Below, one piece after another: positions 279 to 59,070 of a DNA stretch of 64,000 nucleotides. Source of the DNA: Candidatus Omnitrophota bacterium. GTDB taxonomy: Bacteria; Omnitrophota; Gorgyraeia; B26-G9. The stretch's first letter is position 1, and every line of letters begins with the position of its first letter. The notes under the pieces were generated by a model. That model saw nothing but the letters and a program-made list of their open reading frames with translations. It was not told where the DNA came from and searched no databases. Where the stretch lies: the NCBI GenBank assembly GCA_043826565.1, contig JBDRPX010000015.1, forward strand, positions 67,317-131,316, given 5' to 3'. Both the position numbers and the translations under genes were made by a program.

Positions 279-484
279 AAAAAGCTGTTATTTTTTTTAT
301 TGATATATATCGTAACATATTCTCATCATTAAAAATAAGAACATGCAGGTTCTATCCGACATGCTCTGCTTATACCAAAGAAGCTGTGCAGAAAAAAGGA
401 ACACTAAAGGGGCTTATTCTGGGAATTCGGCGAATTTTAAGATGCCACCCGTTTACTTCCGGGGGTTATGATCCGGTAGAATAG
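275..484 (+). CDS. yidD: Membrane protein insertion efficiency factor YidD
   Basis: 69 aa with [10 protein letters not shown]...LRCHPF.SGGYDPV signature; ATGA overlap with rnpA stop. Confidence 0.8.
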
Positions 485-525
485 GAATATACTCGTAACC
501 GTTTTAAAACAAGTAAGTTGGGACT

Positions 526-4443: not shown

Positions 4444-4552
4444 ATCAAAACCTAAAAATCAAAATATATTCTTTTTGTTTTTGAATTTTAAGTTGTATTT
4501 ATGAGTTTTAACAGTAAACAAGGACAGATTAATAGACAAGAAAAATGGGGGG

Positions 4553-21817: not shown

Positions 21818-22147
21818 AGTCTTTCTTGAAAAATGTGATTACAGACATATTAACATATTATATAGCAAGAAGTTACAGATAATTCAAAAGTTAAAATTCA
21901 AAATTGCAATTAAAAAATCAAAAGTTTAAAGATACAATTGTTGAATATTATTGCGTATAAAATTATTGAAAACAAGAATGCTAAGTGTAAAAATGACATC
22001 AAGAGGAATAACTTTTTAATTTTGCCTTGAATTTTTGACATTTGCCTTTTGAGTTTTGATTTGGCAGCCGGTTATAAAATAAAAACAAAGAAAATATCAC
22101 AAAGTTTGAGAAAGAACCGAAAAATAAAACAAAGCGAGAGATAAATA

Positions 22148-23554
22148 ATGTTGTTTACAAAAACCATCCGGGGTAAGCTGATATTAGGGTATACCGCTGT
22201 TTTGCTGGTTAGCCTGGTGATTGTTTTTGTGTATGTGTATATCCAGTTAAACCGCGCGTTTATTACTACTTCCCGGGAATATATTAAAAAAGAACTCTCC
22301 GCGACCATCCGGCTTTTAAAAGACCGGGAAAACAGTCCTTCAGCTATCGCGAATTTCTTGTCGAAGAAAACTGTTTTGTTTCAAAGCGTTTATAATATTA
22401 ATTACGCGCTTTTTGACGCGGAAGGCCTGATGCTCGCGCGTTCGGAAAATTTTTCCGCGGATCTGCAGGCAGTATCTATGAGCAATGCTGAATCAAATCA
22501 AATAATTTATGAAAAACATATAAAAACACCGCAAGGCCAGAGGATGTTTTTTGCTACCCAGGCTTTTACCGATACCGCGGGAGAAAAATTTTATTTACAG
22601 TTTGGATTAGAAACCCGCGCGCATCCGGAATCGGTAAATATAGTTTTAAAAACACTTTTCCGGACATTACCGGTTATTTTGATTATCGTTATAAGCGGAG
22701 GGTTGTTTTTAACCGGCAAGGTATTGGCGCCGCTGGCTTTGGTGACTAAGGCCGCGAGAGAACTTCCGCTTATGGGCCGGGAAAAACTTCTTCCGCTTTC
22801 CGGTACCGGAGATGAACTAGATCAATTAACCGCAGCGTTTAATAATGTCGTTAAACAGCTGCGCGAAGCTTATCAGAGAATTGTTACTTTTACCGCGGAT
22901 GTTTCGCATGAGCTTCGTTTGCCGATTACCGCGATGAAGGGAGAAGCAGAAGTTGTTTTAGAAAGAGAAAGAAGCTTAAAAGAGTATCAGCGGGTTTTAG
23001 GCAGCAGCATTGAAGATATGGATCGTTTAATGAACATGCTTAAGCGGCTGCTTTCCTTAACCCGCGCGGATAGCGGTATTGATTATCTGGTAAAAGAAGA
23101 AGTGGACTTAAAAGAATTATTAGAAAAGCTTGCTGAGTTCTACTTACCTTTAGCGGAAAATAAAGAGCTTTCTTTATCGGTTTCTTCACCGTCAGATGAG
23201 TGTGTGCTTAACGCTGACCCGCTGAGATTGCAGGAGTTATTTTCCAATCTAATCGAGAACGCGGTAAAGTATACTCCGGGAAAAGGAAAAATCACAATAT
23301 CTATAATAAAAACAGAAAAGCAGCATCAAGTACTGGTTGAAGATACCGGTATCGGTATTGCTCCCGAAGAACAAAAAAAGATTTTTGACCGGTTTTACCG
23401 GGTAGATAAATCCCGTTCCCGGACTGACGGCGGTTCCGGATTGGGCTTAAGTATTGCCAAGATGATCGCTAGCACGCATGATGGAGAAATCTATGTGGAA
23501 AGTTCTTTAAATAAAGGAAGCTGTTTTAAAGTTGTGCTCCCCCGCCGGAATTAA
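22148..23554 (+). CDS. Sensor histidine kinase (2 TM, HAMP, HisKA, HATPase_c)
   Basis: H-box SHELRLP, N/G boxes NLIENAVKYT...GGSGLGLSI. Confidence 0.9.
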   Translation: MLFTKTIRGKLILGYTAVLLVSLVIVFVYVYIQLNRAFITTSREYIKKELSATIRLLKDRENSPSAIANFLSKKTVLFQSVYNINYALFDAEGLMLARSENFSADLQAVSMSNAESNQIIYEKHIKTPQGQRMFFATQAFTDTAGEKFYLQFGLETRAHPESVNIVLKTLFRTLPVILIIVISGGLFLTGKVLAPLALVTKAARELPLMGREKLLPLSGTGDELDQLTAAFNNVVKQLREAYQRIVTFTADVSHELRLPITAMKGEAEVVLERERSLKEYQRVLGSSIEDMDRLMNMLKRLLSLTRADSGIDYLVKEEVDLKELLEKLAEFYLPLAENKELSLSVSSPSDECVLNADPLRLQELFSNLIENAVKYTPGKGKITISIIKTEKQHQVLVEDTGIGIAPEEQKKIFDRFYRVDKSRSRTDGGSGLGLSIAKMIASTHDGEIYVESSLNKGSCFKVVLPRRN

Positions 23555-23628
23555 CCCGCCAGGTTTTTTATTAAGAAATCTTAATCTAATCTTAATCCTC
23601 CTTTAATTATTCATGTGTTATTATTGTT

Positions 23629-23662
23629 TAGTGTCGGGACAGGTTTGTAACCTGTCTGAAAC
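23629..23662 (+). repeat. REP-like element (degenerate head) in the 5'UTR of the moxR-like gene
   Basis: tagtgtcgggacaggtttgtaacctgtctgaaac; stem GGACAGGT/ACCTGTC; same family as 27750 and 28840. Confidence 0.55.
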
Positions 23663-23684
23663 TGTAAACAAAACGGAGGTTGCC

Positions 23685-24677
23685 ATGTCATATGAAGCGA
23701 TTCAGGCATTGAATGAAAAGGTAAAAGCGGAAAGCGAATTTATTTCTCAATTGCGTACAGAGATTCACCGGGTGATTATCGGGCAGGAATATCTGGTGGA
23801 AAGATTGTTGGTCGGTTTGTTGGCGGACGGGCATGTTCTTTTAGAAGGTGTGCCGGGGCTGGCGAAAACTTTAAGCGTTTCCACTTTAGCCAAAGGCATT
23901 GCCGCTTCTTTTAAGCGGATCCAGTTTACGCCGGATCTACTGCCCGCGGATGTTATTGGTACGCAGATCTATAACCCCAAAGACTCCAGTTTTTCCATAA
24001 AAAAAGGGCCGGTATTCGCGAATATTATTTTAGCGGATGAGATCAACCGCGCGCCGGCAAAAGTGCAAAGTGCGCTTTTAGAAGCCATGCAGGAAAGACA
24101 GGTCACTATCGGAGAAGAAACCCTCAAACTTCCGGAACCATTTCTTGTTTTGGCAACGCAAAATCCCATTGAGCAGGAAGGAACATATCCTTTGCCGGAA
24201 GCGCAGGTGGACCGGTTTATGCTCAAGCTGAATATTACCTATCCCAGTAAAAAAGAAGAACAGGAAATTTTGCGCCGGATGGCCCGGGTAAATAAAAATA
24301 TTGATATTAAGCCGGTAGTAAAACCGCAGACGATATTAAAGGCCAGAGAGATCGTGGATCAGATATACTTAGATGAAAAACTTGAAGGTTATATTGTGGA
24401 TTTGGTTATGGCTACGCGGGAGCCGGAAGCGTACAAGTTGGATACCAAACAATATATTGAGTATGGGGCGTCTCCGCGGGCGACAATTAATCTAGCTTTA
24501 GCCGCCAAGGCTTACGCTTTTTTGCAGGGCCGCGGGTATGTTACTCCGCAGGATATTAAAAGCATCGGCATGGATGTATTGCGCCACCGCGTGATCGTCA
24601 CTTATGAAGCGGAAGCGGATAATATAACATCTGAAGATATTGTTAATAAAGTTTTTGATACGGTTGTTGTCCCGTAA
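23685..24677 (+). CDS. MoxR-family AAA+ ATPase
   Basis: Start at ATG 23685 (RBS ACGGAGG); Walker A GVPGLAKT, Walker B ILADEINRA; first gene of the Bat-type operon. Confidence 0.9.
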   Translation: MSYEAIQALNEKVKAESEFISQLRTEIHRVIIGQEYLVERLLVGLLADGHVLLEGVPGLAKTLSVSTLAKGIAASFKRIQFTPDLLPADVIGTQIYNPKDSSFSIKKGPVFANIILADEINRAPAKVQSALLEAMQERQVTIGEETLKLPEPFLVLATQNPIEQEGTYPLPEAQVDRFMLKLNITYPSKKEEQEILRRMARVNKNIDIKPVVKPQTILKAREIVDQIYLDEKLEGYIVDLVMATREPEAYKLDTKQYIEYGASPRATINLALAAKAYAFLQGRGYVTPQDIKSIGMDVLRHRVIVTYEAEADNITSEDIVNKVFDTVVVP

Positions 24678-24682
24678 AAATA

Positions 24683-24860
24683 ATTCAAAACTCAAAGGTC
24701 AAAAATCAAAAATGCAAGTCAAAATTAAAAAATAAAAGATTTTAATGTGTTTTAGAATATATTTGAATGGATTGTGAATAGGGATGTTTTATAAGGCATG
24801 ATATTTTTGACTTTTGAATTGAACTTTTGAGTTTTGCTTTTTGAATTTTGAGTTCAAAAA
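24683..24860. repeat. Intergenic composite inverted-repeat element (TCAAAAG-unit arms)
   Basis: Left arm aattcaaaactcaaaggtcaaaaatcaaaaatgcaagtcaaaattaaaaaataaaag; right arm atttttgacttttgaattgaacttttgagttttgctttttgaattttgagttcaaaaaag. Confidence 0.5.
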
Positions 24861-24871
24861 AGAGGATTACC

Positions 24872-25747
24872 ATGATACCTAAAGAGTTGTTGAAGAAAAT
24901 CAGGCATATTCAGATATATTCCGCGCGCATGGTCAATGATATTCTTGCCGGAGCCTACCATAGCACGTTTAAAGGCCGGGGCATAGAATTTGACACGGTA
25001 AGGGAGTATCAGCCGGGAGATGAGATCCGAACGATCGACTGGAATGTTACCGCGCGCATGGGCCATCCTTTTATAAAGAAATTTGTGGAAGAGCGCGAGT
25101 TAACGGTAATGCTGGTCGTGGATATGAGCGCTTCCGGAGATTTCGGCTCAGGGCCGCGCATGAAAAACGAATTTGCCGCGGAGCTTTGTGCGGTGCTGGC
25201 TTTTTCCGCGATCAAAAATAATGATAAAGTCGGGTTGATCATGTTTACCGATAAAGTGGAAAAATATATCCCGCCGAAAAAAGGTAAGCGCCATGTGCTT
25301 CATGTTATCAGTGAAGTGCTTTCGTTTAAACCAAAAAGCCGGGGCACTAATATTGCGGCAGCTTTGGAATTTTTAAATTCAATTAATAAACGCCGGTCCG
25401 TAACCTTTCTGGTTTCGGACTTTATTTCTCAGGATTATGCCCGGGCTTTACAGATATCCAATAAACGTCATGATATGATTGCGATCGCGATCAAAGATCC
25501 GCGGGAATCGGAATTGCCGGATATCGGGATGATCGAGCTGGAAGACGCGGAAACCGGAGAAGCCCTGACCGTGGATACCGCGGATATTAAAGCGCGTAAA
25601 ACCTTTAATGTTGCCGCGGGCACAGAGGCCGCGCAAAGAGATAAAAAATTTCGCCAGATAGACGTTGATGTTATTCATGTGCAGACGGATAACTCATACT
25701 TAGAGCCGCTGATGAGGTTTTTTAGAGCACGGGAGAAAATGAGATAA
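24872..25747 (+). CDS. DUF58 protein (MoxR-associated, vWA-like)
   Basis: FKGRGIEFDTVREYQPGDEIRTIDWNVTAR signature of DUF58; start chosen at ATG 24872 with RBS AGAGGA. Confidence 0.85.
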   Translation: MIPKELLKKIRHIQIYSARMVNDILAGAYHSTFKGRGIEFDTVREYQPGDEIRTIDWNVTARMGHPFIKKFVEERELTVMLVVDMSASGDFGSGPRMKNEFAAELCAVLAFSAIKNNDKVGLIMFTDKVEKYIPPKKGKRHVLHVISEVLSFKPKSRGTNIAAALEFLNSINKRRSVTFLVSDFISQDYARALQISNKRHDMIAIAIKDPRESELPDIGMIELEDAETGEALTVDTADIKARKTFNVAAGTEAAQRDKKFRQIDVDVIHVQTDNSYLEPLMRFFRAREKMR

Positions 25748-26703
25748 TGAAAAAAGGAATATTTTTTTTATTAGCGGGGGTTCTCAGCTTGGGTATTGCG
25801 GGAAAGGCCATGGCCTTGGAAGGGGAATTGCCGTCTGTCCGGGCTTATGTTGATAAAGCAGAGATTACCATCGGAGAAAAAATCAAGTACACATTAGAAG
25901 TTGATTATAATAAATCAGCTAAAGCGGAATTCCCGATTATTGATGTGGAAATGGGTGGTTTTGCTATTAAAGATTTCGGGCAGGAACCACCGAGGAAAAC
26001 CGGACGAAAAAGTTTACAGGAAAAAAGATGGTATTTACTGGATACTTATACGGTTGGTTCATATGTAATCCCCCAACAGCAAATAAAAATAATCTTAGCC
26101 GATAAACAGATAAAGAAGATCACCGCCCCGGAAGTATTTGTGGAAGTCAAAAGTGTTCTGGGGCAGGAGGGGCAAGCAGAGGGACTGCGGGATATTAAAT
26201 CTCCGGTTAGTGTTGCCGCAGATACAACCCGGCTTATTTTAGTGCTCCTGGGCAGTTTGTTGCTAATTGCGGGAATCATGATTTTTTGGCGGTTTTGTTC
26301 TTTTCGGAGCAGCCGGCCGGTACTCTGGGCGGCTTTGCCGGCGCATGAACAGGCGTTCCGAGAATTAGAACGCATTAATAGTTTAAATCTGCTGAATGAG
26401 GGAAAAATTAAAGAATATTATTATCTGGTATCGAATTGCCTGAGAAGTTATCTGGAGAACCGTTTTGGCTTGCGGGCTCCGGAGCAGACCACCGAAGAAT
26501 TTTTAGCCGAGGTGATCGCGACCGATCAGCTTAAAGGCCGGGATATTAACCGCTTAAAAGAATACTTGCAGCATTGCGATCTGGTAAAGTACGCGAAGTT
26601 TGAGCCGGGCAAATCTGATATTGAAAAATTAATGACGACAACCAGGCAGTTTGTAGAGGAAACAAAATTGGTTGGTAGTCCACAGTCCATAGTTGATGAA
26701 TAA
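25747..26703 (+). CDS. Hypothetical secreted/membrane protein of the Bat operon
   Basis: Signal peptide plus one internal TM (LILVLLGSLLLIAGIMIFW); TAATG overlap with upstream gene. Confidence 0.5.
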   Translation: MKKGIFFLLAGVLSLGIAGKAMALEGELPSVRAYVDKAEITIGEKIKYTLEVDYNKSAKAEFPIIDVEMGGFAIKDFGQEPPRKTGRKSLQEKRWYLLDTYTVGSYVIPQQQIKIILADKQIKKITAPEVFVEVKSVLGQEGQAEGLRDIKSPVSVAADTTRLILVLLGSLLLIAGIMIFWRFCSFRSSRPVLWAALPAHEQAFRELERINSLNLLNEGKIKEYYYLVSNCLRSYLENRFGLRAPEQTTEEFLAEVIATDQLKGRDINRLKEYLQHCDLVKYAKFEPGKSDIEKLMTTTRQFVEETKLVGSPQSIVDE

Positions 26704-26708
26704 TTTTT

Positions 26709-26736
26709 CTTGAGACTTGCGACTTGTGGCTTGAGA
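26709..26736 (+). repeat. Tandem heptamer tract CTTGAGA-CTTGCGA-CTTGTGG-CTTGAGA immediately upstream of batA
   Basis: Read from sequence; same CTTGNGA family as 9851 and 17713. Confidence 0.7.
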
Positions 26737-26752
26737 CTAGAGGTTTTTGATA

Positions 26753-27751
26753 ATGTTTTTTCGTGATTTTCACAATATTATATTGCTGTTTATTTTTGTG
26801 CCGCTGATATTGTTCGTGTATTTTAACCGCAAATCGCACGGGCAGGTGATCTTTTCTTCTTTACGGCATTTAAAGAAAATCCCGGCTTCCCGGACTTTGC
26901 GTTCCCGGCAGATGCTCATGGCCTTGCGTGTTCTGGCGGTTTGCTTTTTAGTTGTCGGATTGATGCGCCCGCAAAAAGGAATTGAAGAAACAAAGATCGA
27001 GACCGAAGGCATTGATATCATCCTGGCAATTGATGTTTCCGGAAGTATGATGGCTGAAGATTTTGTTTTAAACGGAGAAAGAAAAAACCGTTTAGAATCG
27101 GTTAAATATGTGGTGCGTGATTTTATTAAAAAAAGAACCAATGACCGCATCGGACTGGTTGTTTTTAGCGGGCGCGCGTATATGCAGTGCCCGCTGACTT
27201 TAGATTATGGAATATTATTGCAGTTTTTAGATAAAGCGCAGATTGGGATGATCGAAGACGGTACTGCTGTCGGCGACGGGATTGCCACGGCCTTAGCCCG
27301 GATAAAAGATATTCCGGCGAAAAGTAAGGTGGTTATTTTATTGACCGACGGAGTGAATAATGCGGGGAAAGTTGACCCGTTAAATGCCGCGGAACTGGCG
27401 AAAGCGATCAAGGCCAAGGTTTATACTATCGGCGCCGGAACTAAGGGCCGGGTTCCGTTTCCGGCAAAAGACTTATTCGGCAATACGGTTTATCAATGGG
27501 CCGTGATCGATCTGGATGAAGATTCTTTGCGTCAAATCGCTCAGATTGCCGGAGGTAAATATTTCCGGGCCAAAGATACCGAGAGTTTAAAGAAGATTTA
27601 TGAGGAAATTGATAATATGGAAAAGACAAAAATAGAAATAAGTTCTTATACTGAATACAATGAAATGTTTAAACCGTTTGTGTTGGCCGCCCTGGGGTTG
27701 CTGCTGCTGGAGCTTATTTTGCGTTATACAAGGCTGCGCATATTACCATAA
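26753..27751 (+). CDS. batA: vWA-domain protein BatA
   Basis: Two N-terminal TM, vWA MIDAS DVSGSM; start set to ATG 26753 (ORF-track TTG 26747 less likely). Confidence 0.85.
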   Translation: MFFRDFHNIILLFIFVPLILFVYFNRKSHGQVIFSSLRHLKKIPASRTLRSRQMLMALRVLAVCFLVVGLMRPQKGIEETKIETEGIDIILAIDVSGSMMAEDFVLNGERKNRLESVKYVVRDFIKKRTNDRIGLVVFSGRAYMQCPLTLDYGILLQFLDKAQIGMIEDGTAVGDGIATALARIKDIPAKSKVVILLTDGVNNAGKVDPLNAAELAKAIKAKVYTIGAGTKGRVPFPAKDLFGNTVYQWAVIDLDEDSLRQIAQIAGGKYFRAKDTESLKKIYEEIDNMEKTKIEISSYTEYNEMFKPFVLAALGLLLLELILRYTRLRILP

Positions 27752-27784
27752 CCTGTAGGGACAGGTCTGTGACCTGTCCGAAAC
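27750..27784 (+). repeat. REP element (GTAGGG head + palindrome) between batA and batB
   Basis: aacctgtagggacaggtctgtgacctgtccgaaac; stem GGACAGGTC/GACCTGTCC. Confidence 0.7.
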
Positions 27785-27802
27785 AAGAGGATAAAGGAAT
27801 AT

Positions 27803-28834
27803 ATGCGATTTGGGAATTTACAATTTTTATGGATGCTGTTACTTGTTCCGGCGGGTATTTTGTTTTTTTCCTGGGCCTTTAAATCTAAACGCCGGGCTTT
27901 AGAAAAATTCGCGCAAAATGACCGGCTGAAAGTTTTATTACGCCGGGTCAGTTTAAAAAAACAAAAATTAAAAGCTGTTTTTTTTATTTTGGGAATTTTG
28001 TTTGTAGTTCTTTCCTTGATTGAGCCGAAATGGGGATATCAATGGGAACAGGTAAATCGCCGCGGACTGGATATTGTTATTGCTTTGGATGTTTCCAAAA
28101 GCATGCTGGCCGAAGATATTAAGCCTAACCGGCTGGAAGCGGCAAAAAGAGAAATAAAAAGCCTGATCAATATTTTACAGGGGGACCGTGTCGGGATTGT
28201 GGCTTTTGCGGGGAGCTCGTTTTTGCATTGTCCGTTAACCCTTGATTACGGTACCGCGAAATTATTTGTCGATTATCTGGATATTAACGCGATCCCGTTC
28301 GGCGGCACAGATATCGGCGGAGCAATACGTCAGGCAGTGCGCGCTTTTGAAGGCCATGAGAAGAAACACCGGGTATTGATCCTGATTACCGACGGAGAAG
28401 ATCATCAGGAAGATGTTATGGACGCGGTGGAATTAGCCAAGCAGAATGGCGTGGTTATTTTCCCCATTGGTGTCGGCCGTCAGGAAGGCGCGCCGATCCC
28501 GGTGGTTGACGGACAGGGCCGCAGCGGATTTGTCAAAGATAGCGAAGGTAAAGTGGTTTTATCAAAACTTGATTCGGTCTTACTGCAAAAGATCGCGCTG
28601 ATCGCCGGCGGTAAAAAAGGAAGTATCGGCGCGGGAAGTTTTCCTCTGGAGGAGATTTATGAGCAGGAAGTTTCTAAGATGGAAAAGAAAGAACTGCAGT
28701 CTTCCCGGCAGAAGCGTTATGAGAATAGGTTCCAGTATCCGTTAATGATCGCCTTATTAATGTTTGTTGCCGAAGCAGTGCTAAGTGAAAGAAAAAATAA
28801 GGGTGTAGGGGCGGACCTCCGTGTCCGCCCGTGA
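27803..28834 (+). CDS. batB: vWA-domain protein BatB
   Basis: TM, vWA MIDAS DVSKSM; the last ~10 codons (GVGADLRVRP) are encoded by a REP element. Confidence 0.85.
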   Translation: MRFGNLQFLWMLLLVPAGILFFSWAFKSKRRALEKFAQNDRLKVLLRRVSLKKQKLKAVFFILGILFVVLSLIEPKWGYQWEQVNRRGLDIVIALDVSKSMLAEDIKPNRLEAAKREIKSLINILQGDRVGIVAFAGSSFLHCPLTLDYGTAKLFVDYLDINAIPFGGTDIGGAIRQAVRAFEGHEKKHRVLILITDGEDHQEDVMDAVELAKQNGVVIFPIGVGRQEGAPIPVVDGQGRSGFVKDSEGKVVLSKLDSVLLQKIALIAGGKKGSIGAGSFPLEEIYEQEVSKMEKKELQSSRQKRYENRFQYPLMIALLMFVAEAVLSERKNKGVGADLRVRP

Positions 28835-28835
28835 C
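28804..28835 (+). repeat. REP element (GTAGGGG head, stem GGCGGAC/GTCCGCC) forming the 3' end of batB
   Basis: tgtaggggcggacctccgtgtccgcccgtgac. Confidence 0.7.
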
Positions 28836-28839
28836 AAAA

Positions 28840-28874
28840 AACCTGTAGGGACAGGTTTGTAACCTGTCCGAAAT
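28840..28874 (+). repeat. REP element in the batB-batC intergenic region / batC 5'UTR
   Basis: aacctgtagggacaggtttgtaacctgtccgaaat. Confidence 0.7.
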
Positions 28875-28884
28875 AAGGTAGATC

Positions 28885-29634
28885 ATGAAAATATTAATTT
28901 TTATTACAGTAATTTTGCTTTGCACTGCGAATGTTGCTTTTTGCGGGCTGGCGCGAAATGTAAAACAAGGTAATCAGGCCTATGATAAAGGTAACTATGA
29001 CCAGGCCTTGATAAAATACAATGACGCGCAGATCGACGACCCGCAAAGCCCGGAAGTGTTTTATAATATGGGCAATGTTTTTTACCGCCAGAAAAAATAT
29101 AAAGAAGCAATTGACGCGTTTGAAAAATCAACGGAAAAAGCAGAGGTAGGGCTTCAGGCTAAAGCATTGTATAATATAGGTAATTCTTTTTTTAATCAGG
29201 GGCAGCTGCGGCAGGCTTTAGAGAGTTATAAGCAGTCCTTAGAGCGAAACCCGGATGATCTGGATACAAAATATAATATTGAATATACGGAAAAGAAAAT
29301 AAAAGAAATGCTTTCGCAGTCTCAACAGACCCAGCAGCAGGCGGAAAAAGACCGGCAGCAGCAACAGCAAGATCAACAACAGAGCCAAGGTCAACAGCAG
29401 GAACAACAGGAACAGAAGCAAGCTCCACAGCAGCAAGTGCAAACTGCGCAAGATCAGCCGTCAGCGCAGGATCAGCAAGCTCAATCCGCGGAAAAAAAGA
29501 ATGAAGAAGAATTAACTAAAGAAGAAGCGGATAGGTTTCTTTCTGCTTTTGGGCAGGACCAGAAAAATCTTCTTCCTCCGCAGCCGGAACAGAAACAAAA
29601 AGGTATGAATAATAATGTGGAAAAGGACTGGTAA
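28885..29634 (+). CDS. batC: TPR-repeat protein BatC with Q-rich low-complexity tail
   Basis: Signal/TM, 3 TPRs, then a QQQ..EQ tract. Confidence 0.75.
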   Translation: MKILIFITVILLCTANVAFCGLARNVKQGNQAYDKGNYDQALIKYNDAQIDDPQSPEVFYNMGNVFYRQKKYKEAIDAFEKSTEKAEVGLQAKALYNIGNSFFNQGQLRQALESYKQSLERNPDDLDTKYNIEYTEKKIKEMLSQSQQTQQQAEKDRQQQQQDQQQSQGQQQEQQEQKQAPQQQVQTAQDQPSAQDQQAQSAEKKNEEELTKEEADRFLSAFGQDQKNLLPPQPEQKQKGMNNNVEKDW

Positions 29635-31519
29635 GAGTTTACTTTTAACCGCGATTTTTTGTTTCGCGGCAGTTTCGGTTTTTGCCGCGGAGCCGGAGGT
29701 ATCTTTTTCCGTAAACCAGAGAGAAATATTGCTCGGAGACAGCTTTGTCTTATCTATTACCGTGAAAAATGTCTCCAATCCTCAAACTCCGGAATTACCG
29801 GAGATACCCGGGTTTGATACGCATTTTCAGGGAACCCGGCGCCAGGGATTTTCCAGTTATACGGTTATTATTAACGGCAAAGTCCAACAGCAGAATTCCG
29901 GCGGCGGTTATGACTTTGCTTTTGAATTAACACCGAGAAATACCGGCACATTTACCATTCCGTCGTTTACCGTTACTGCCGGAGGAAAGAGTTTTGCCAG
30001 TAATCCGTTTGAGGTAAGAGTATTCGCGCAAACGGAAAAAAGTGATGATGTTTTTATTGAAGTAAGCGCGGATAAAAACAAGGTCTATCTGGGGGAAAAA
30101 ATTGTCCTGACATTTAAGTGGTATTATAATAAAAATATTCAGGATTACCGGATCAATGTTCCCTGGCTGGACGGTTTGAAAAATTTTCTTATTGCTGATC
30201 CGGAATTCGATCAGAATCTTCGCTATGAAAGAATTGTGGTTAACGGGGATCAGCAGGTGATCGTTACCAAAGGCCGGGAGTTTTATGAAGGCCAGCCGTA
30301 TACAATAATGACTTTTCAGAAAATACTCACCCCCATATCCGTGGGTACATACAGCCTGGAACCGTCTTTTATTAAATGCGATGTGGTTACCGGATATCAG
30401 CAGCGTTCGGGAAAAGGCACCTTGTTTGAAGATCTTTTTGACGCGGACATGGATAATTTTTTCAGTTTCGGCAGGAAAGCGGTTACGCAGCCGCTGGCCG
30501 CGCGGTCTGCTCCCATTGCCATCCAAGTAAGCGAGGTTCCGGAACTAAACCGGCCGGCTAATTATAATGACGCGGTCGGAGAGTTTGATTTTAAAGTTAA
30601 TGTTAATCCCATTAATTTAAAGGCCGGAGACCCGATCACCCTAACCATGAAAGTTTCCGGAACCGGTAATATCGAGCAGTTAACTCTTCCGGAAATCCCG
30701 GACCTGGAAAACTTTAAAAGCTATGAACCGGAAAGCCGGGTAAATGTAGCGCCCAAGGGCGGTGAAGTTTTCGGCGAAAAAATATTCGAGAAAGTACTGG
30801 TGCCGAAAAGAGAAGGCAGTTATACCATTCCGGCAATTGCCTTTACTTTTTTTCATCCCCGTCAGATGAATTATAAGACGATCACGCAGGGGCCGTTTGT
30901 GGTGCAGGTAGCTAAGGGAGAAAAAGAGCGGGAAGTGCAGGTGGTCGCGCTCACTCCGGAAAGTTTTGTACAGGAGAATAAGCAGGAGTTAAAGATCTTA
31001 AAGAAAGACATCCGCTATATTAAAACCACCTTAGGTAAAGTTGTAAAAAACAGACAGCAAATATATGAAAACCCTTTAATCTGGGTATTGCTTTATCTTG
31101 TGCCCGGATTTATCCTGGGAATAATGGTTTTTTGGCAGAAACAAAGAGATAGATTGCAAACTGATACGGGATTCGCGCGTAAACACCGGGCCATGCAAAA
31201 TACAAAAAAATTATTTACAGATGCCGATGCCGCGCTTAAAGCCAAAGAGGTTAAGCGTTTTTACGACGCGCTTTCCCGTTTGCTTAACGGATATCTCGCG
31301 GATAAACTCAATCTTCCTTTAGGAAGCATGAACGCGGAGATCATCCCGGAGCTTAAGAAAAGCGGTTTGATCGAGAAGCACGTTCAGCAATTAACTGAGC
31401 TTTATCAGACCTTTGAAATGGTTTTGTTTTCTTCGGTTAAAATAGAATTCGATAAGATGAAACAGGATTATGCGCAGGTAAAGGCGATCATCGGAATTTT
31501 GGAGAAGATATTAAGATGA
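29615..31519 (+). CDS. batD: BatD-family protein
   Basis: 634 aa; signal peptide, large extracytoplasmic beta-rich region, one TM near aa 500; positional and compositional match to BatD. Confidence 0.75.
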   Translation: MWKRTGKSLLLTAIFCFAAVSVFAAEPEVSFSVNQREILLGDSFVLSITVKNVSNPQTPELPEIPGFDTHFQGTRRQGFSSYTVIINGKVQQQNSGGGYDFAFELTPRNTGTFTIPSFTVTAGGKSFASNPFEVRVFAQTEKSDDVFIEVSADKNKVYLGEKIVLTFKWYYNKNIQDYRINVPWLDGLKNFLIADPEFDQNLRYERIVVNGDQQVIVTKGREFYEGQPYTIMTFQKILTPISVGTYSLEPSFIKCDVVTGYQQRSGKGTLFEDLFDADMDNFFSFGRKAVTQPLAARSAPIAIQVSEVPELNRPANYNDAVGEFDFKVNVNPINLKAGDPITLTMKVSGTGNIEQLTLPEIPDLENFKSYEPESRVNVAPKGGEVFGEKIFEKVLVPKREGSYTIPAIAFTFFHPRQMNYKTITQGPFVVQVAKGEKEREVQVVALTPESFVQENKQELKILKKDIRYIKTTLGKVVKNRQQIYENPLIWVLLYLVPGFILGIMVFWQKQRDRLQTDTGFARKHRAMQNTKKLFTDADAALKAKEVKRFYDALSRLLNGYLADKLNLPLGSMNAEIIPELKKSGLIEKHVQQLTELYQTFEMVLFSSVKIEFDKMKQDYAQVKAIIGILEKILR

Positions 31520-32268
31520 AAAAATTTATTCTGACATTTTTAATATTAAGCTGTTTTTGCGTAAACGCGTTCGCGGTTTCTGTTGATGAATTGTTTTTTG
31601 AGGCAAACAAGCAATATGCCGACGGTAATTACGCCAAAGCAATTATCCTATATAAAAGTATCCTTTCTCAGGGCACCCAAAGCGGAAATCTTTATTATAA
31701 TCTGGGCAATACCTATTTTAAATTAGGGGATCGGGGGAAAGCGGTTTTAAATTATGAGCGGGCAAAAAGGATAATCTCTCACGATGAAGATCTATTCGCC
31801 AATGATTTGTTTGCCCGGTCTTTGCTGGATATTCAACAGCCCAAAGATGTGTCGCTTTGGTATGAAAAAGCTTATATTGCCATAAGGGATGTTTTTTCCG
31901 CTAAAGTCTGGTTTGTTTTCGCGGCAGTTGTGTTTTTATTGCTCTGTATTATTATCGGTATTTCTATATTTTATGCTCCGTTTCGCAAAAACGCGCAGAA
32001 ACTGAGTGTTTGTTTGGGGCTGCTCTGGATCGGATGTTTTGGGTTTTTTATCCAGCAAAACCAGCTGCAGGTCAAGCAGTTATGGGGAATTGTTATTGTG
32101 CCCAAGGCGGAGGTGCGTTACAGCCCGTCCTATTCCGGAGCGGTGGCTTTTGAGCTGACCGAAGGCATGCGTGCCCAGGTACTTAGAAAAGACGGGGACT
32201 GGAAGCAGATACGTTTAAACCGCACCACCAGCGGCTGGATCGAAGCCGAAGCTGTTGAGGAAATATAA
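31516..32268 (+). CDS. batE: TPR + SH3b protein BatE
   Basis: Signal peptide, TPRs, TM, C-terminal SH3b-like (DWKQIRLNRTTSGWIEAEAV); ATGA overlap with batD. Confidence 0.75.
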   Translation: MKKFILTFLILSCFCVNAFAVSVDELFFEANKQYADGNYAKAIILYKSILSQGTQSGNLYYNLGNTYFKLGDRGKAVLNYERAKRIISHDEDLFANDLFARSLLDIQQPKDVSLWYEKAYIAIRDVFSAKVWFVFAAVVFLLLCIIIGISIFYAPFRKNAQKLSVCLGLLWIGCFGFFIQQNQLQVKQLWGIVIVPKAEVRYSPSYSGAVAFELTEGMRAQVLRKDGDWKQIRLNRTTSGWIEAEAVEEI

Positions 32269-32411
32269 TATCATATCATAGTCATCAAATATACTACCTC
32301 CCGATATTCCATTGCCAATTATGTTTTATTTCTGATATACTATTGTTAAAATTAAAACAAAGATATTAATTGTTATATGAGAAAAATAATGAAATATGAT
32401 ATAATTTCCCC

Positions 32412-33851
32412 ATGCCACAAATTGATACAGAATTAATATCAAAGTTATTAAATGCTAAAGAATCGCAACTTTTTGAATGCAAGCAAATCAAAAAGAAGCC
32501 TAGTGAAGTATTGCCTACAATCTGTGCCTTCGCAAATACTGATGGGGGGATATTCATTTATGGCCTAGGTGACCCCGGGAAAATACCTCAAAAAGAAAGA
32601 ATTGTTGGGACATCGGAACACCCCGATAATGTAGGGGAACTACTTAAACTAATAGCAAGCGAATTTGAGCCACCCATACCAAACATAAAAACATTCTATT
32701 TAGATGTGATCAACTGTAAAGGAGAAAATGATCAAGTTCTTATGATCTCTGTTGATCCGTCAAGGGATGTTCATTCAATACGCACAGGAAAAACTTTCAT
32801 AAGAAGAGGCACTAGGAATGACCTTTTAACGCATAAGCAATCGTTACAATTGCAATACGAAAAAGGCACGATAACCTTTGAGTCAGAAATATGCAAAGAT
32901 ATTTCTCCCGATGAGTTTGATCAAGCAATGTTCAAGGGGTTTCTTGAATATAATGATAGCAAAGAAAAAGATATATTAAAATTTTTATCGAAAAATGGGT
33001 TGGCGAGAAGAAAGGATGATAAATTTTACCTTACGAATGCAGCAATATTGCTTTTTGGAGAAAATCCTTCTGTTCTTTTAAAGAGAAAAGTTGGAATTAA
33101 AATAATCCATTACTTGGGAATAAGACGAGTAGCTTCAGGAAACCCTAATTTCGTTCGTCCACCATTTACAATAGAGGGCCCGGCATTAATATTGATCAAA
33201 AAGACCTTTAAATATATCAGCGAAAACGCAGCACCTGTTCAATTAAAAGGTGCAACTTTTCAAAGACTAAAAATTCCCCTCTATGTTATACAAGAAGCTA
33301 TAACAAATGCTATCATACATAGAGATTATAGCATTCAAAATGACATACAAATCAGAATTTTTGATGACCGCATAGAAATTGAAAGCCCAGGATGGTTTCC
33401 AGGCTTAGTCACTCCAGAATCTATTTTGCAAGAAAGATTTGCTCGCAATCCAATGATTGAACGAACTCTTAGAAAAATGCCGGAACCCCCCAACCTTGAT
33501 ATTGGAGAAGGCGTGAAACGTATGTTTGCCGAAATGAAGAAAAAAGATTTATATGCTCCTGTTTATCTACCGAAAGAATACTCTCCTCATAGTGTTTCAC
33601 TTATATTGTTCAATGAAGAACGTACTACCTTTTGGGATATGGTCTCAAATTATTTAGAGCAAAATGGAACCATACGTAACGAGCAATTCCGTCATATTTC
33701 TGGATTGGGACGATCTGAAGCATCTGAAATGTTAAAAAAATGGGTTAGCAAAGGACTCTTAGAAAAAAAAGGCACTAGCAGAAAAAGTACATTTTATCAA
33801 AAACCCGGATTCAAACCCAAAAAAGAGAGTTTATTAGAGAATGTCTCCTAA
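32412..33851 (+). CDS. AlbA_2 (Schlafen-like divergent AAA) + HATPase_c_4 domain protein, putative nucleic-acid-binding regulator
   Basis: N-terminal ESQLFECKQ...ICAFANTDGGIFIYGL (AlbA_2) and IQEAITNAIIHRDYSIQNDIQIRIFDDRIEIESPG (HATPase_c_4); AT-rich codon usage relative to neighbours. Confidence 0.7.
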   Translation: MPQIDTELISKLLNAKESQLFECKQIKKKPSEVLPTICAFANTDGGIFIYGLGDPGKIPQKERIVGTSEHPDNVGELLKLIASEFEPPIPNIKTFYLDVINCKGENDQVLMISVDPSRDVHSIRTGKTFIRRGTRNDLLTHKQSLQLQYEKGTITFESEICKDISPDEFDQAMFKGFLEYNDSKEKDILKFLSKNGLARRKDDKFYLTNAAILLFGENPSVLLKRKVGIKIIHYLGIRRVASGNPNFVRPPFTIEGPALILIKKTFKYISENAAPVQLKGATFQRLKIPLYVIQEAITNAIIHRDYSIQNDIQIRIFDDRIEIESPGWFPGLVTPESILQERFARNPMIERTLRKMPEPPNLDIGEGVKRMFAEMKKKDLYAPVYLPKEYSPHSVSLILFNEERTTFWDMVSNYLEQNGTIRNEQFRHISGLGRSEASEMLKKWVSKGLLEKKGTSRKSTFYQKPGFKPKKESLLENVS

Positions 33852-34269
33852 TAAATATCCACGAAACAAAAATATTGATGTAACACATTCGTATTGTTTG
33901 ACTTACTGGTTGAGATGTTTTATTTTTATTAGAATTGACATCTAGTTAGCTGGTGGACGCGCGCAAATGGAGTTTACCCAGTAGGTGTTTATGGGTGGTA
34001 TGTACAATTAATGAAAGAATATAAAACCAGAAAATTAAACCGATTGAAAGAATATGATTATTCGCAAGCAGGATATTATTATGTAACGATATGCGTCTAT
34101 GTTCGTGAATGCCTGTTTGGAAATATAATTAATAATAATATGGAATTGAACAATGCCGGCGAAATGATGGGTAAAATATTGCAAAAATTGCCGGAATATT
34201 ATCCAAACATAGACATTGATCAACAGATTGTAATGCCAAATCATATTCATGCGATAATTATAATCAAAG

Positions 34270-34305
34270 AACCTGTAGGGGACGACCTCTGTGTCGTCCC
34301 GGGAC
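34270..34305 (+). repeat. REP element (forward) inside RAYT ORF
   Basis: aacctgtaggggacgacctctgtgtcgtcccgggac; stem GGGACGAC/GTCGTCCC. Confidence 0.7.
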
Positions 34306-34390
34306 AAAATCAAAAACATGATCAAACAATAAACCAAAATGATTTAACAGCCGAAGGACAGGTGTATGGTAACGGACAGACACAAGATAA

Positions 34391-34419
34391 AGGGCGGATA
34401 CGGAGATCCGCCCCTACAG
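34391..34419 (-). repeat. REP element (inverted orientation) inside RAYT ORF
   Basis: gggcggatacggagatccgcccctacagg is the reverse complement of cctgtaggggcggatctccgtatccgccc, near-identical to the REP at 28804. Confidence 0.7.
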
Positions 34420-34682
34420 GACGTTTATCATTGTCAAATATAATTCAACGATTTAAAATGATAACAACAAAACGTTATATTGATGGCGTAAAAAATTATC
34501 ATTGGCAAACATTTGATAAACATTTATGGCAACGTTCATTTTATGACCATATAATCCGCACAAATGATTCTTTAAACAATATGCGCGAATATATTGTTAA
34601 TAATCCCTCAACATGGGATAATGATGAACATAATATTAATAATTTTTTTATAGAGGACAATTATTGTAAAATAATATAAACC

Positions 34683-35150
34683 ATGAAATTTGAAATAAAT
34701 CAAATCGGCATAATTCATTCACCCTACAAAACCAAAGATGAATGCCCGATCCAGGGTTCAGTTAAGCCCGAAGGAAGAGGGCAAATTGAAATATTCCCGG
34801 AATACGAACCAGCCTTAGAAACAATCGAAACATTTTCGCATATTATCCTGTTTTACATTTTTGACCAGGCCGGAGAAATAAAATTATCCCGGCCGACATT
34901 CTTAGATGATGTTCCCCACGGAGTATTCGCTTCCCGTCATCCCTGCCGGCCGAATAGTATCGGCATGTCTATTGTCAAATTAGAAAAAAGAAATAAAAAT
35001 ATTCTGGAAGTAAGCGAAATAGATGTTTTGGATAATACTCCGCTTATTGATATAAAACCGTATCTGCCTAAATTTGATCATCGGGAAAATGCCAATAACG
35101 GCTGGGCCGAAACAAAAGAATTACGCGAAAAACCAAAGGGCCGGGAATGA
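34683..35150 (+). CDS. trmO: tRNA (t6A37) methyltransferase TrmO/TsaA (YaeB family)
   Basis: GIIHSPYKTK...GVFASRHPCRPNSIGMSIVKL...LDNTPLIDIKPY matches the TsaA-like fold signature. Confidence 0.85.
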   Translation: MKFEINQIGIIHSPYKTKDECPIQGSVKPEGRGQIEIFPEYEPALETIETFSHIILFYIFDQAGEIKLSRPTFLDDVPHGVFASRHPCRPNSIGMSIVKLEKRNKNILEVSEIDVLDNTPLIDIKPYLPKFDHRENANNGWAETKELREKPKGRE

Positions 35151-35190
35151 AGGCCTACAACAAATGTTATGAGAGGAATAGAAAAAAACA

Positions 35191-35493
35191 ATGAAAAAAA
35201 ACTGCTGGGAATTCAAGAAATGCGGAAGAGAACCGGGAGGAGAAAATGCCGGTAAGCTGGGGGTTTGTCCGGCGGCTGTTTGCCTGAAAGCAAATAAAAT
35301 TCATAACGGGAAAAATGGGGGCAGATGCTGTTGGTCAATAGTGGGAACACTCTGCGGAGGGAAAATTCAAGGCACGTTTGTGAAAAAATACCAAAGCTGC
35401 ATGGAATGCGTTTTTTTTGCATTAGTTACTCAGGAAGAAGATGATATATTAACAAGTTTAGAAATAAATAAAAAAATTAAAAACACAGAATAA
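35191..35493 (+). CDS. Small Cys/Trp-rich protein (two-CW-domain-like)
   Basis: 100 aa; MKKNCWEFKKCGREPGG...GVCPA...GGRCCWSIVGTLCGG...SCMEC; 11 Cys; remembered similarity to 'two-CW domain' proteins, not verified. Confidence 0.5.
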   Translation: MKKNCWEFKKCGREPGGENAGKLGVCPAAVCLKANKIHNGKNGGRCCWSIVGTLCGGKIQGTFVKKYQSCMECVFFALVTQEEDDILTSLEINKKIKNTE

Positions 35494-35514
35494 AGATTCA
35501 GAAAGGAGCGGAGT

Positions 35515-35904
35515 ATGTTAAAAAAGACAAATGTTTTAATGCCAAGCATTGCGGTATTGATTGTGCTGTGCTGCTGTGTGGCCGGCTGCGGGAAAAGAGT
35601 TATGCTCGGAGGCGGCGGGTATAATCATAATTTCGCGCGTTACGGCGAATATAATCTGGTAAGTAAAAACAGTGATCTGTACATGGACAGAGTTAACGGC
35701 AAAGACAGCCGGAGGCTGACCTTTTCTCCGAAAGTCAAAGAAGATTTCGCGTTTGTCCTCGGTAATACAGGGTATGTAGTATATTCGGTGATTGAAGATA
35801 TCAGCAAACCAAAAAAATATTATATCCAAAATATGGATACAAGTTATAAAACCAGGAAAAAGATCACGGAACAGGAATTTAATAAATATTTGCGGGAACG
35901 TTAA
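35515..35904 (+). CDS. Hypothetical lipoprotein
   Basis: Signal peptide with lipobox-like LCCCVAGCG; RBS AAAGGAGCGGAG. Confidence 0.5.
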   Translation: MLKKTNVLMPSIAVLIVLCCCVAGCGKRVMLGGGGYNHNFARYGEYNLVSKNSDLYMDRVNGKDSRRLTFSPKVKEDFAFVLGNTGYVVYSVIEDISKPKKYYIQNMDTSYKTRKKITEQEFNKYLRER

Positions 35905-35924
35905 ACAAGGGGACGGATGTTTGT

Positions 35925-46571: not shown

Positions 46572-46632
46572 TGCGCATCGGCTGATGCGTAACCGATTAG
46601 TGTGTATGATTGCCAAAAGGGGAGAGAGCAAA

Positions 46633-59042: not shown

Positions 59043-59070
59043 CGTAGGGGCGCCGCTTGTCTGCGCCCGA
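59043..59070 (+). repeat. REP-like element (GTAGGGG head, stem GGGCGC/GCGCCC) downstream of the giant gene
   Basis: cgtaggggcgccgcttgtctgcgcccga. Confidence 0.55.

Follow-up and report, generated by a model that had tools for sequence, protein, structure and literature searches.

The window, a stretch of 64 kb from the MAG of an uncultured Omnitrophota bacterium, lies just right of dnaA/rnpA and contains a Bat operon with moxR, batA, batB and batC. A gene encoding a RAYT transposase lies 5 kb downstream of the repeats hosted by the operon. By scanning the window for GT[AG]G sequences followed by a hairpin, seven REP hairpins have been identified (Table 1); shuffled sequences gave 2.35 hits on average, and these were weaker. 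Four repeats reside in the Bat operon, two in the RAYT gene, and one, E7, is intergenic. Six of the seven fall at 23.6-34.4 kb. An eighth copy, the sister of E7, was detected across the origin, on the minus strand of the gyrA-gyrB spacer (L076 3189-3213), within the 9.5 kb adjoining the left edge of the window. Abundance is a classical criterion for REPs; copy numbers here refer to the 64-kb window and the 9.5 kb on its left (L076), which are a part of the MAG. A further GTAG-tagged hairpin, at 47305-47328, was rejected as a chance occurrence: it falls within the 4101-aa ORF, has an unrelated, A+T-richer stem, and about 2.35 such hits are found in shuffled DNA.

Table 1. Repeats and genes of the window. 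Stems, loops and flanks are separated by hyphens; the sequence of E6 is that of the minus strand.
Feature	Position	Strand	Sequence	Location or basis
E1, decayed type-A REP	23631-23661	+	GTGTCGG-GACAGGTT-tgt-AACCTGTC-TGAAA	histidine kinase gene-moxR spacer, 130 nt
batA (VWA and BatA N-terminal domain)	26747-27751	+		stop adjoins E2
E2, type-A REP	27750-27784	+	AACCT-GTAG-GGACAGGTC-tgt-GACCTGTCC-GAAAC	batA-batB spacer
batB (VWA), 343 aa	27803-28834	+		final 9-10 codons and stop from E3
E3, type-B REP	28803-28834	+	TGTAGG-GGCGGAC-ctccgt-GTCCGCC-CGTGA	3' end of batB
E4, type-A REP	28840-28873	+	AACCT-GTAG-GGACAGGTT-tgt-AACCTGTCC-GAAA	batB-batC spacer
batC (TPR)	28885-29634	+		downstream of E4
RAYT/TnpA_REP, Y1 HUH family, 222 aa	34011-34679	+		Pfam, NCBIfam, profile search
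E5, REP within the RAYT ORF	34270-34305	+	AACCT-GTAG-GGGACGAC-ctctgt-GTCGTCCC-GGGACA	GTAG and hairpin
E6, inverted REP within the RAYT ORF	34392-34420	-	CCT-GTAG-GGGCGGAT-ctccgt-ATCCGCCC	GTAG and hairpin
E7, intergenic REP	59044-59069	+	GTAG-GGGCGCCG-cttgt-CTGCGCCC-G	downstream of the 4101-aa ORF

The repeats share an architecture in which a 5' (C)CT-GTAG-G head is followed by a perfect, G+C-rich hairpin of 8-9 bp and a C(G) foot. Stems are perfect in E1-E6 (8-9 bp, with loops of 3-6 nt), and one C.T mismatch is present in E7. The GTAG head is conserved in six of the seven copies of the window; in E1 it is mutated to GTCG, the outer pair is G.T, and the foot is CT, not CC. The type-A hairpin GGACAGGTYTGTRACCTGTCC is found exact at 27759-27779 and 28849-28869, and with one mismatch at 23637-23657; no match was found in 100 dinucleotide-preserving shuffles. 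The type-B hairpin GGGCGGACctccgtGTCCGCCC spans positions 28809-28830. Stems vary while the architecture stays constant: the differences among E3, E5 and E6, as well as those between E7 and its sister, are compensatory double changes, and a single compensatory base-pair change separates E6 from E3. The initial annotation had described the four elements of the Bat operon, and all of them are present. Yet, E1 lacks the left ACCTGT arm assigned to it (its head reads GTGTCGG), and three copies of the same architecture, E5, E6 and E7, had been overlooked. The location at 20-45 nt upstream of start codons also needs correction: hairpins end 27, 23 and 15 nt ahead of the moxR, batB and batC ATGs, and the elements start 54, 53 and 45 nt ahead of them.

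GTAG REPs are palindromes of 20-40 nt carrying a 5' GTAG tag, and several families may occur in one genome (Di Nocera et al. 2013, PMC3733652; Nunvar et al. 2010, PMC2817692). The repeats described here resemble them in many respects. GTAG REPs are found mostly just 3' of ORFs, between co-directional genes, and in part within ORFs or at ORF ends (PMC3733652, PMC2817692); similarly, E1, E2, E4, E7 and the copy of L076 lie between genes, E3 overlaps the end of batB, E5 and E6 reside in the RAYT gene. A RAYT gene is nearby, and the presence of the repeats varies among relatives. In contrast to the inverted dimers more common among GTAG REPs, copies here are singletons or, as E3 and E4, direct tandems in identical orientation, and they come from the MAG of an uncultured member of Omnitrophota. 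E5 and E6 form an inverted pair with heads pointing outward, as in REPINs or 'double foot' elements (Bertels and Rainey 2011, PMC3116915), but their stems differ, so that a single long hairpin cannot be formed, and none of the repeats of the Bat operon belongs to an inverted doublet. In the Group 3 REPtron of Stenotrophomonas maltophilia, the REP consists of a stem of 8 perfectly paired bp, a loop of 3 nt and a 5' GTAG, and cleavage occurs at a CT next to the REP (Corneloup et al. 2021, PMC8266576). Type-A repeats similarly have a perfect 9-bp stem, a 3-nt loop, and CT directly 5' of GTAG, though stem sequence and RAYT group are different. The match of the CCT-GTAG head to the CT cleavage site and the GTAG guide experimentally defined for TnpA_REP (PMC8266576) supports the REP nature of the elements.

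The product of the RAYT gene was recognized by Pfam Y1_Tnp (PF01797; 35.5 bits, cut-off 23). NCBIfam NF047646, 'REP-associated tyrosine transposase', was the top-ranked model, with 55.7 bits, or 67.3 bits upon removal of an insert, against a curated cut-off of 80, and homologues of the protein carry the name RayT from JGI. The HUH motif is H78-I-H80 (MPNHIHAII), and the catalytic tyrosine, invariant in the profile alignment A1, is Y194 (REYIVNNP). Both line up with motifs of the E. coli TnpA_REP (4ER8), which was retrieved with the family profile A1 at E = 5.5e-5, while a single-sequence search of the PDB with the insert-free protein gave no match. The 4ER8 counterparts of the two motifs are HMH and Y115, as numbered by counting along the E. 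coli sequence. The insert, about 49 residues long and in frame, is made of the two inverted repeats E5 and E6, which span residues ~88-136 of 222, between H80 and Y194. E5 is translated into PVGDDLCVVPG, in the same frame relative to GTAG as the repeat found at the end of BatB, and E6 is read on the plus strand as GRIRRSAPTG. A VGA...APT insert frame is present in 23 of 25 aligned RAYT homologues. In homologues from different phyla, the variable insert is bounded by VGA (encoded by GTAGGGGC) and APT (encoded by GCCCCTAC), and genuine hairpins are found in the DNA.

Repeats inserted between HUH and tyrosine are a hallmark shared with TnpA_REP subclass 2.4, whose insert is highly variable in length and sequence, and whose members are scattered over many phyla (Quentin et al. 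2018, PMC6006769). High abundance of the subclass has been reported for Cyanobacteria and Bacteroidetes, but not for Omnitrophota (PMC6006769), and the correspondence seen here is one of architecture. Unlike members of the subclass, the RAYT gene of the window is not flanked by intact REPs, and its REPtron arrangement is incomplete: intact GT[AG]G hairpins are missing from the flanks of the gene, where only a possible decayed half-copy (34649-34669) was found. A type-A REP directly adjoins the RAYT gene in five other Omnitrophota loci (L007, L015, L042, L051 and L060; L015 and L042 are RAYT homologues with flanking REPs present). In several Omnitrophota, where the full RAYT ORF is visible, the flanking type-A repeat provides the final codons and the stop of the gene (..VGTGL*). 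The association indicates that type A is a cognate REP of a REPtron.

Six related Bat operons were compared to that of the window. In L070 the batA-batB spacer reads ccgTAG/aagaggat, in the window ccaTAA/CCTGTAGGG...CCGAAAC/aagaggat. E2 hence corresponds to a 33-nt insert lacking target duplication, as expected under Y1 transposition. The E2 site is empty in five operons (L070, L071, L073, L074 and L077), and E4 is absent in L070, L071 and L077. Type-A repeats are missing from all six operons; type-B repeats are missing from five, including L077, whose BatB is the most similar (79%), and L070 is the sole carrier. In operons lacking type B, a gap of 1 nt separates batB from batC, or the two genes overlap. 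The type-B copy of L070 has head and stem identical to those of the window, but different loop and flanks. Considering that type B is absent from 5/6 and type A from 6/6 operons, it is less likely that the Bat operon would need REPs. Taken together, the REP label given to the repeats in the initial annotation is sustained by the presence of a cognate RAYT gene, by the head GTAG, by stems that changed in a compensatory manner, and by sites found empty in relatives. The elements very probably are GTAG-tagged REPs, likely mobilised by the RAYT described above, those of the Bat operon being insertions.

One of the insertions altered a protein. BatB ends with ..KG-VGADLRVRP*, where E3, once translated, supplies the nine terminal residues, VGADLRVRP, and the stop. 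The statement that a palindrome codes for the C-terminus (GVGADLRVRP) and the stop codon (TGA, 28832-28834) of BatB was hence correct, and the last ten or so residues of the protein come from read-through into a REP. None of 119 BatB homologues has a VGA tail, and the closest ones end with ..SERKRK and ..SERKNRYR. Beyond ..SERK, BatB tails are 0-20 residues long and lack conservation, and passive read-through is therefore sufficient to account for the tail encoded by the REP. To call this sequence exapted, as originally done, is too strong; the tail is presumably neutral. In L070 the orthologous type-B copy sits past the batB stop codon. The type-B copy at the 3' end of batB would be older, and shared with one relative; in the genome of the window the batB frame has no stop ahead of E3 any more, translation continuing through the hairpin to a TGA located one base past it. 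Tails of other relatives (..AEVRP, ..EEVAV and ..AEVPA) were considered as additional REP-encoded ends, and discarded: the corresponding DNA contains the batC Shine-Dalgarno sequence (GGAGGTG) and an ATGA stop/start overlap, and no hairpin. Rickettsia palindromic elements (RPE) and other REPs inserted in frame are similarly translated within host proteins which are not destroyed (PMC3733652), but the BatB case is a C-terminal read-through of 9-10 residues, not an internal insertion, and no sign of a peptide function is apparent.

On mRNA, each element would fold into one very stable hairpin (MFE from -15 to -19 kcal/mol). Type-A elements had been viewed in the initial annotation as RNA switches or processing sites, in which a helix formed by ACCUGU and ACAGGU (loop AGGG) would alternate with a helix formed by GGACAGGU and ACCUGUCC (loop YUGUR), governing the use of the downstream start. 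Complementarity supporting the alternative helix exists in E2 and E4; the 5' helix would emerge first during transcription, and could transiently form. In addition, in the MFE structure of E4, ACCU in the head can pair weakly with AGGU in the batC Shine-Dalgarno sequence. However, the 9-bp hairpins have MFE values of -16.8 and -18.3 kcal/mol, against -7.0 for the ACCUGU/ACAGGU helix. Folds in which the alternative is enforced are, at best, 5.6-6.0 kcal/mol less stable, and pair probabilities are ~0.9999 for the main helix, and round to 0 for the other. As E1 lacks the ACCTGT arm, the alternative helix is possible only in two of the three type-A elements. The head AACCTGTAGGG also precedes the unrelated stem GGGACGAC of E5 (34270), to which it is unable to pair. 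In other genomes the type-A hairpin was found 74 times; ACCTGT is present in three of these copies, GT[AG]G in 56. The supposed arm is the conserved REP head, and CT and GTAG already have a role at the DNA level, as cleavage site and guide. It is thus very improbable that type-A repeats work as two-state switches.

Even slimmer is the chance that the hairpins are intrinsic terminators of the Bat operon, or protein-binding operators, and never moved. The hairpins are indeed perfect, G+C-rich palindromes found between genes. In contrast, the plus strand of E1-E4 lacks T-runs (the tails are GAAAC, GTGACAAAA and GAAAT), and a terminator scan reported none of the four; moreover, the same hairpin recurs in unrelated contexts across many phyla, in or beside RAYT genes, and is absent from orthologous operons. 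The only terminator-like repeat detected by the scan was E6 on the minus strand, inside the RAYT ORF.

REPs may also be mobile in origin, and have been co-opted in the Bat operon as RNA elements. The hairpins would shield upstream mRNA from 3'-5' decay and, lying no more than ~15 nt from the batA and batB stops, could hinder terminating ribosomes, and thereby adjust the BatA:BatB:BatC ratio. The first bases of E2 overlap or abut the batA stop TAA (27749-27751); the hairpins of E2 and E4 start 7 nt past the batA stop and 14 nt past the batB stop, respectively, and E3 ends 1 nt ahead of the batB stop. All four copies are sense-oriented, RNA stability is high, and the type-B head and stem are unchanged in L070 although loop and flanks diverged. 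A stop-proximal REP effect, consisting in translation attenuation, has reportedly been observed in E. coli by Liang, Rudd and Deutscher in 2015, and the E. coli REP/BIME sequences are said, since the work of Higgins and Newbury in the 1980s, to be mRNA stabilisers. The latter also are stable hairpins found inside polycistronic transcripts, within ~15 nt of upstream stops; in the Bat operon, unlike in E. coli, the function is a possibility suggested by position and folding, and the elements are missing from most orthologous operons. The E. coli studies figure as references 29 and 30 in PMC6006769. The general enrichment of GTAG REPs just 3' of ORFs, between co-directional genes (PMC3733652), fits with co-option as well. 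However, type A is missing from 6/6 and type B from 5/6 related operons, L077 included, and the repeats lack a U-tract and match no Rfam family. A scan of both strands of the 22000-36000 region at E <= 1 returned only a chance rli40 match, located elsewhere. Sense orientation, in turn, would be expected to the same extent from the preference of Y1 transposition for one replication strand. Positive GC skew extends over the whole window, and GTAG is found in all six extragenic copies on the strand serving as lagging-strand template; the copy located between gyrA and gyrB, to the left of the origin, is on the minus strand. The bias is confounded by the neighbouring genes, which are all co-directional with replication. 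On the whole, co-option is a rather unlikely explanation, though less so than a switch or a terminator.

The interpretation favored here, that the repeats are mobile GTAG REPs, may be outlined as follows. A REP would be a non-autonomous DNA element of ~33 nt, including the 5' CT cleavage dinucleotide, the GTAG guide and a perfect hairpin, and would spread most likely on single-stranded DNA, such as the lagging-strand template, through a Y1 HUH RAYT of the subclass 2.4 type. The Bat-operon copies would have inserted in the short spacers between genes, and both type-A copies would be specific to this lineage. Effects on mRNA decay, or on termination and re-initiation of translation, if any, would be a by-product, and the tail of BatB would be passive as well.

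The exact 21-nt type-A stem-loop GGGACAGGTnTGTnACCTGTC was searched in GTDB representative genomes, a set which does not include the source genome, and 74 copies were found in 69 loci, against a rough chance expectation of ~4. The copies are distributed among Omnitrophota, Planctomycetota, Verrucomicrobiota, Chloroflexota, Gammaproteobacteria, CPR, KSB1 and others.

The analysis provides a record of a subclass-2.4 REP/RAYT system from Omnitrophota, including clear-cut filled and empty sites and a read-through event. It is also of use for annotation: the BatB tail can be flagged as REP-derived, not functional, and recurrent 'junk' peptide motifs in metagenome proteins (VGA..., ...APT, VGTGL*) are translated REPs. 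As for regulatory mechanisms, nothing new is revealed. The REP type is known, and the identity of the type-A hairpin across phyla is the only aspect perhaps meriting a dedicated study. We regard it as possible, though somewhat doubtful, that type A is a REP 'species' which is not lineage-specific; as a still weaker addition to this reading, the copies in the Bat operon may have acquired, by co-option, a role in adjusting the ratios of the subunits. If type A indeed is not confined to lineages, subclass-2.4 REP/RAYT modules may spread horizontally between phyla, or recognition by RAYTs may leave hardly a nucleotide of the hairpin free to vary. Each of these options would depart from the prevailing view of REPIN-RAYT pairs as host-specific and vertically inherited.

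The window hosts seven REP copies (E1 to E7), retrieved by a perfect-stem scan and by a scan for GT[AG]G plus hairpin. All have one architecture, in which N-CT-GTAG-G is followed by an 8-9 bp stem, a 3-6 nt loop, the matching stem strand and C(G). Three of them add to those of the initial annotation, and an eighth copy separates gyrA from gyrB on the left side of the window, where 9.5 kb (L076) were covered. The hairpin of type A elements (E1, E2 and E4), GGACAGGTYTGTRACCTGTCC, is exact at 27759-27779 and 28849-28869, carries one mismatch at 23637-23657, and found no match in any of 100 dinucleotide-preserving shuffles. These three elements had been described as sharing an ACCTGT core; the hairpin is present in all three, but near 23631 the head is GTGTCGG, and the left arm ACCTGT is missing. 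The type B sequence GGGCGGACctccgtGTCCGCCC, at the 3' end of batB (28809-28830), has a relative with two mismatches on the minus strand at 34392-34413. Stems differ by compensatory double changes only (GGCGGAC/GTCCGCC in E3 versus GGCGGAT/ATCCGCC in E6 and GGACGAC/GTCGTCC in E5; GGCGCCG/CTGCGCC in E7 versus GGCGGCG/CTCCGCC in the L076 copy), thus the hairpin has been kept, not its sequence.

Features of the window, and type A REPs at the 3' end of RAYT genes in other genomes (L-numbered loci)
Feature	Position	Remarks
E1	23631	type A, decayed
MoxR-type AAA	23685-24677	
DUF58	24848-25747	
LB_053-like	25747-26703	
BatA	26747-27751	
E2	27750	type A
BatB	27803-28834	
E3	28803	type B
E4	28840	type A
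BatC	28885-29634	TPR
BatD	29615-31519	
BatE-like	31516-32268	TPR + SH3
Schlafen AlbA_2 + HATPase_c_4 protein	32412-33851	putative DNA-binding regulator or ATPase, between Bat operon and RAYT gene
RAYT ORF	34011-34679	222 aa
E5	34270	plus strand, inside RAYT ORF
E6	34392-34420	minus strand, inside RAYT ORF
trmO	34683-35150	starts 4 nt past RAYT stop
Cysteine-rich 100-aa protein	35191-35493	downstream of trmO; NCBIfam 'two-CW domain-containing protein', 102.5 bits
Single 4101-aa ORF	46585-58890	signal-anchor-like N-terminus, many repeated beta-rich modules, coiled C-terminal region
E7	59044	intergenic, in 270-nt A+T-rich spacer after the 4101-aa ORF
L007 REP	2514-2534	RAYT ORF just upstream
L015 REP	3933-3953	RAYT ORF just upstream
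L042 REP	3547-3567	RAYT ORF just upstream
L060 REP	4504-4524	RAYT ORF just upstream

The identity of the Bat operon was confirmed by Pfam and NCBIfam, and filled and empty sites emerge by comparison with related operons (L070 to L075 and L077). The batA-batB spacer reads ccgTAG followed by aagaggatgttATG in L070, and ccaTAA followed by CCTGTAGGGACAGGTCTGTGACCTGTCCGAAAC and aagaggat...ATG in the window; relative to L070, E2 is a clean 33-nt insert, with no target duplication. This REP is absent also from L071, L073, L074 and L077, and E4 was found, among the Bat operons compared, in the window only. At the batB-batC junction L070 carries the type B REP as the window does, but past the stop (...cgaaaaTAAttgtatTGTAGGGGCGGACcgatgcGTCCGCCCgagaca); the two copies share head, stem and 3' flank exactly, and differ in the loop. 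In L077, in which BatB is 79% identical, there is no REP at this junction, and batB TGA and batC ATG are 1 nt apart; the two genes overlap or abut in L071, L072, L074 and L075. Palindromes unrelated to the window REPs are found in the batA-batB spacer of L072 (a long imperfect hairpin at 2417-2500, cagccatcagctg...cagctgatggctg) and after batB in L073 (CACCCGAATgaATTCGGGTG and CACCCCAATtcATTGGGGTG, 3509-3580); Bat spacer junctions would seem to gain hairpin elements repeatedly. Between histidine kinase and moxR relatives host a ~300-aa BatD-like gene (L070 3942-4850; L071 3860-4771), the window only a 130-nt spacer (23555-23684) holding E1, which points to a possible loss of this gene beside a REP. 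A rotamase gene follows DUF58 in L070, and is absent from the window.

In the window batB translation misses the TAA of AAAAATAAGGG, which is not in its frame, and passes through the REP to a TGA. The final codons, GTA GGG GCG GAC CTC CGT GTC CGC CCG TGA, are E3 itself, and the ORF ends in ...SERKNKGVGADLRVRP; the initial annotation was thus correct in assigning the C-terminus and stop of BatB to a REP. Past the conserved ..AEAxLSERK, tails of 119 BatB homologues range from 0 to 20 unconserved residues, and the VGA tail occurs in none of them. With respect to GTAG, the BatB tail (VGADLRVRP) and the RAYT insert (VGDDLCVVP) are read in one common frame. The tail encoded by the REP is therefore real, but nothing points beyond passive read-through, and the further claim of exaptation as coding sequence is unproven.

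E5 and E6 reside within the gene of a REP-associated tyrosine transposase (RAYT). The ORF has a Pfam Y1_Tnp match above threshold; the top NCBIfam model, 'REP-associated tyrosine transposase', scores 55.7 bits, or 67.3 without the insert, the curated cut-off being 80 bits. A profile from 25 homologues matches E. coli TnpA_REP (4ER8, E = 5.5e-5), to which the HUH motif (MPNHIHAII) and the catalytic tyrosine (REYIVNNP, Y194) are aligned. Homologues number 735 in many phyla, and several are called RayT by their own source. A variable insert lies right after HUH in nearly all those aligned, edged by VGA (GTAGGGGC, coding strand) and APT (GCCCCTAC, inverted head), and the corresponding hairpins were seen in the DNA of L007, L015, L042, L051 and L060. 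The REP-framed insert of the window RAYT is the 'unique feature' of TnpA_Y1 subclass 2.4 (Quentin et al. 2018, PMC6006769). GTAG architecture, a RAYT gene with inserted REPs, and filled versus empty sites concur in supporting the original designation of the elements as REPs. The 3' end of the RAYT ORF (34649-34669, TATAGAGGACAATTATTGTAA) aligns with CTGTAGGGACAGGTTTGTAA of the 3' REP of homologues, the 3' arm being absent. This has the look of a half-REP in decay, thus the gene may have lost its flanking REP.

In GTDB representative genomes the type A hairpin GGGACAGGTnTGTnACCTGTC recurs in 74 copies at 69 loci of many phyla, the rough chance expectation being ~4 (19 fixed bases, 596 Gb, both strands), and GT[AG]G precedes 56 of the 74. 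Five of the loci, from Omnitrophota or Planctomycetia, have a RAYT homologue whose end coincides with the element. In the four with a complete ORF in view (L007, L015, L042, L060) the REP supplies the last five codons and stop (...NINIPVGTGL*, GTA GGG ACA GGT TTG TAA, with TAA in the loop), a case parallel to the BatB tail; the conserved flank is ATAATATAAATATACCTGTAGGGACAGGTTTGTAACCTGTCCTTTATAAAATAAT. In L051 the same REP comes right after a truncated RAYT match. Judging from sequence context, type A is a RAYT-linked REP too. Its cross-phylum identity is unusual for REPs. Eight phyla or more share the exact 21-nt stem-loop, which is found at 5 loci of the isolate Brevifollis gellanilyticus and at 7 of a Gammaproteobacteria MAG. 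Covariation is seen in the loop-closing pairs (tCTGTGa vs tTTGTAa).

Two mutually exclusive hairpins had been proposed as a potential RNA switch or processing site; folding does not support a switch. The ViennaRNA minimum free energy is -16.8 kcal/mol for 27745-27790 and -18.3 kcal/mol for 28835-28880, versus -11.2 and -12.3 kcal/mol for the best structures with the alternative helix enforced; in both segments the pair probability is about 0.9999 for the main helix, and rounds to 0 for the alternative one. The ACCUGU/ACAGGU helix alone reaches -7.0 kcal/mol. ACCTGT is missing in E1, and present in only 3 of the 74 type A copies elsewhere. This 'left arm' consists of CT plus the GT(AG) of the head AACCTGTAGGG, which is also found before E5, whose stem (GGGACGAC) cannot pair with it. 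Experiments have mapped TnpA_REP cleavage to the CT beside the REP, and GTAG serves as guide and recognition motif (Corneloup et al. 2021, PMC8266576); the complementarity is therefore best read as a side effect of a signal acting on DNA rather than as an RNA switch.

Bat-operon REPs are sense-oriented parts of what is probably a polycistronic mRNA, and follow stop codons at 7 and 14 nt; they are not terminator-like in a terminator scan, and match no Rfam family. E. coli REPs so placed are said, from work by Newbury and Higgins and, in 2015, by Liang and colleagues, to be able to lend stability to the mRNA upstream, or to hinder ribosomes at termination. Orientation and position would fit an analogous effect on mRNA stability or translation termination here, which is however unlikely, and weakened by the lack of REPs in most orthologous Bat operons.

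The distribution of GTAG among strands may bear on mobility. The window starts ~0.5 kb right of the dnaA-dnaN / rnpA-yidD-yidC region, the presumed replication origin, and GC skew is positive over all 64 kb. Minus-strand gyrA, gyrB, dciA, dnaN and dnaA are followed by plus-strand rpmH-like, rnpA, yidD, yidC and jag (L076 1-9475 plus window 1-2142). GTAG is on the plus strand in all five extragenic or gene-end copies of the window, and on the minus strand in the copy between gyrA and gyrB, which is on the other, left side of the origin. The GTAG strand is in each case, on both sides of the presumed origin, the lagging-strand template, where Y1 transposases meet single-stranded hairpins (PMC6006769). 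All neighbouring genes have this strand as their sense strand too, and replication-strand and sense-strand explanations are therefore confounded. In the model proposed, the window RAYT would mobilise these REPs, and movement would occur via single-stranded DNA at the replication fork.

The system is a textbook GTAG-REP / RAYT one, of the published subclass 2.4 type. The host, a Candidatus Omnitrophota MAG, is new; filled and empty sites stand out neatly, and in one case translation has run into a REP. The sole less expected point is the near-identity of the type A hairpin across many phyla.
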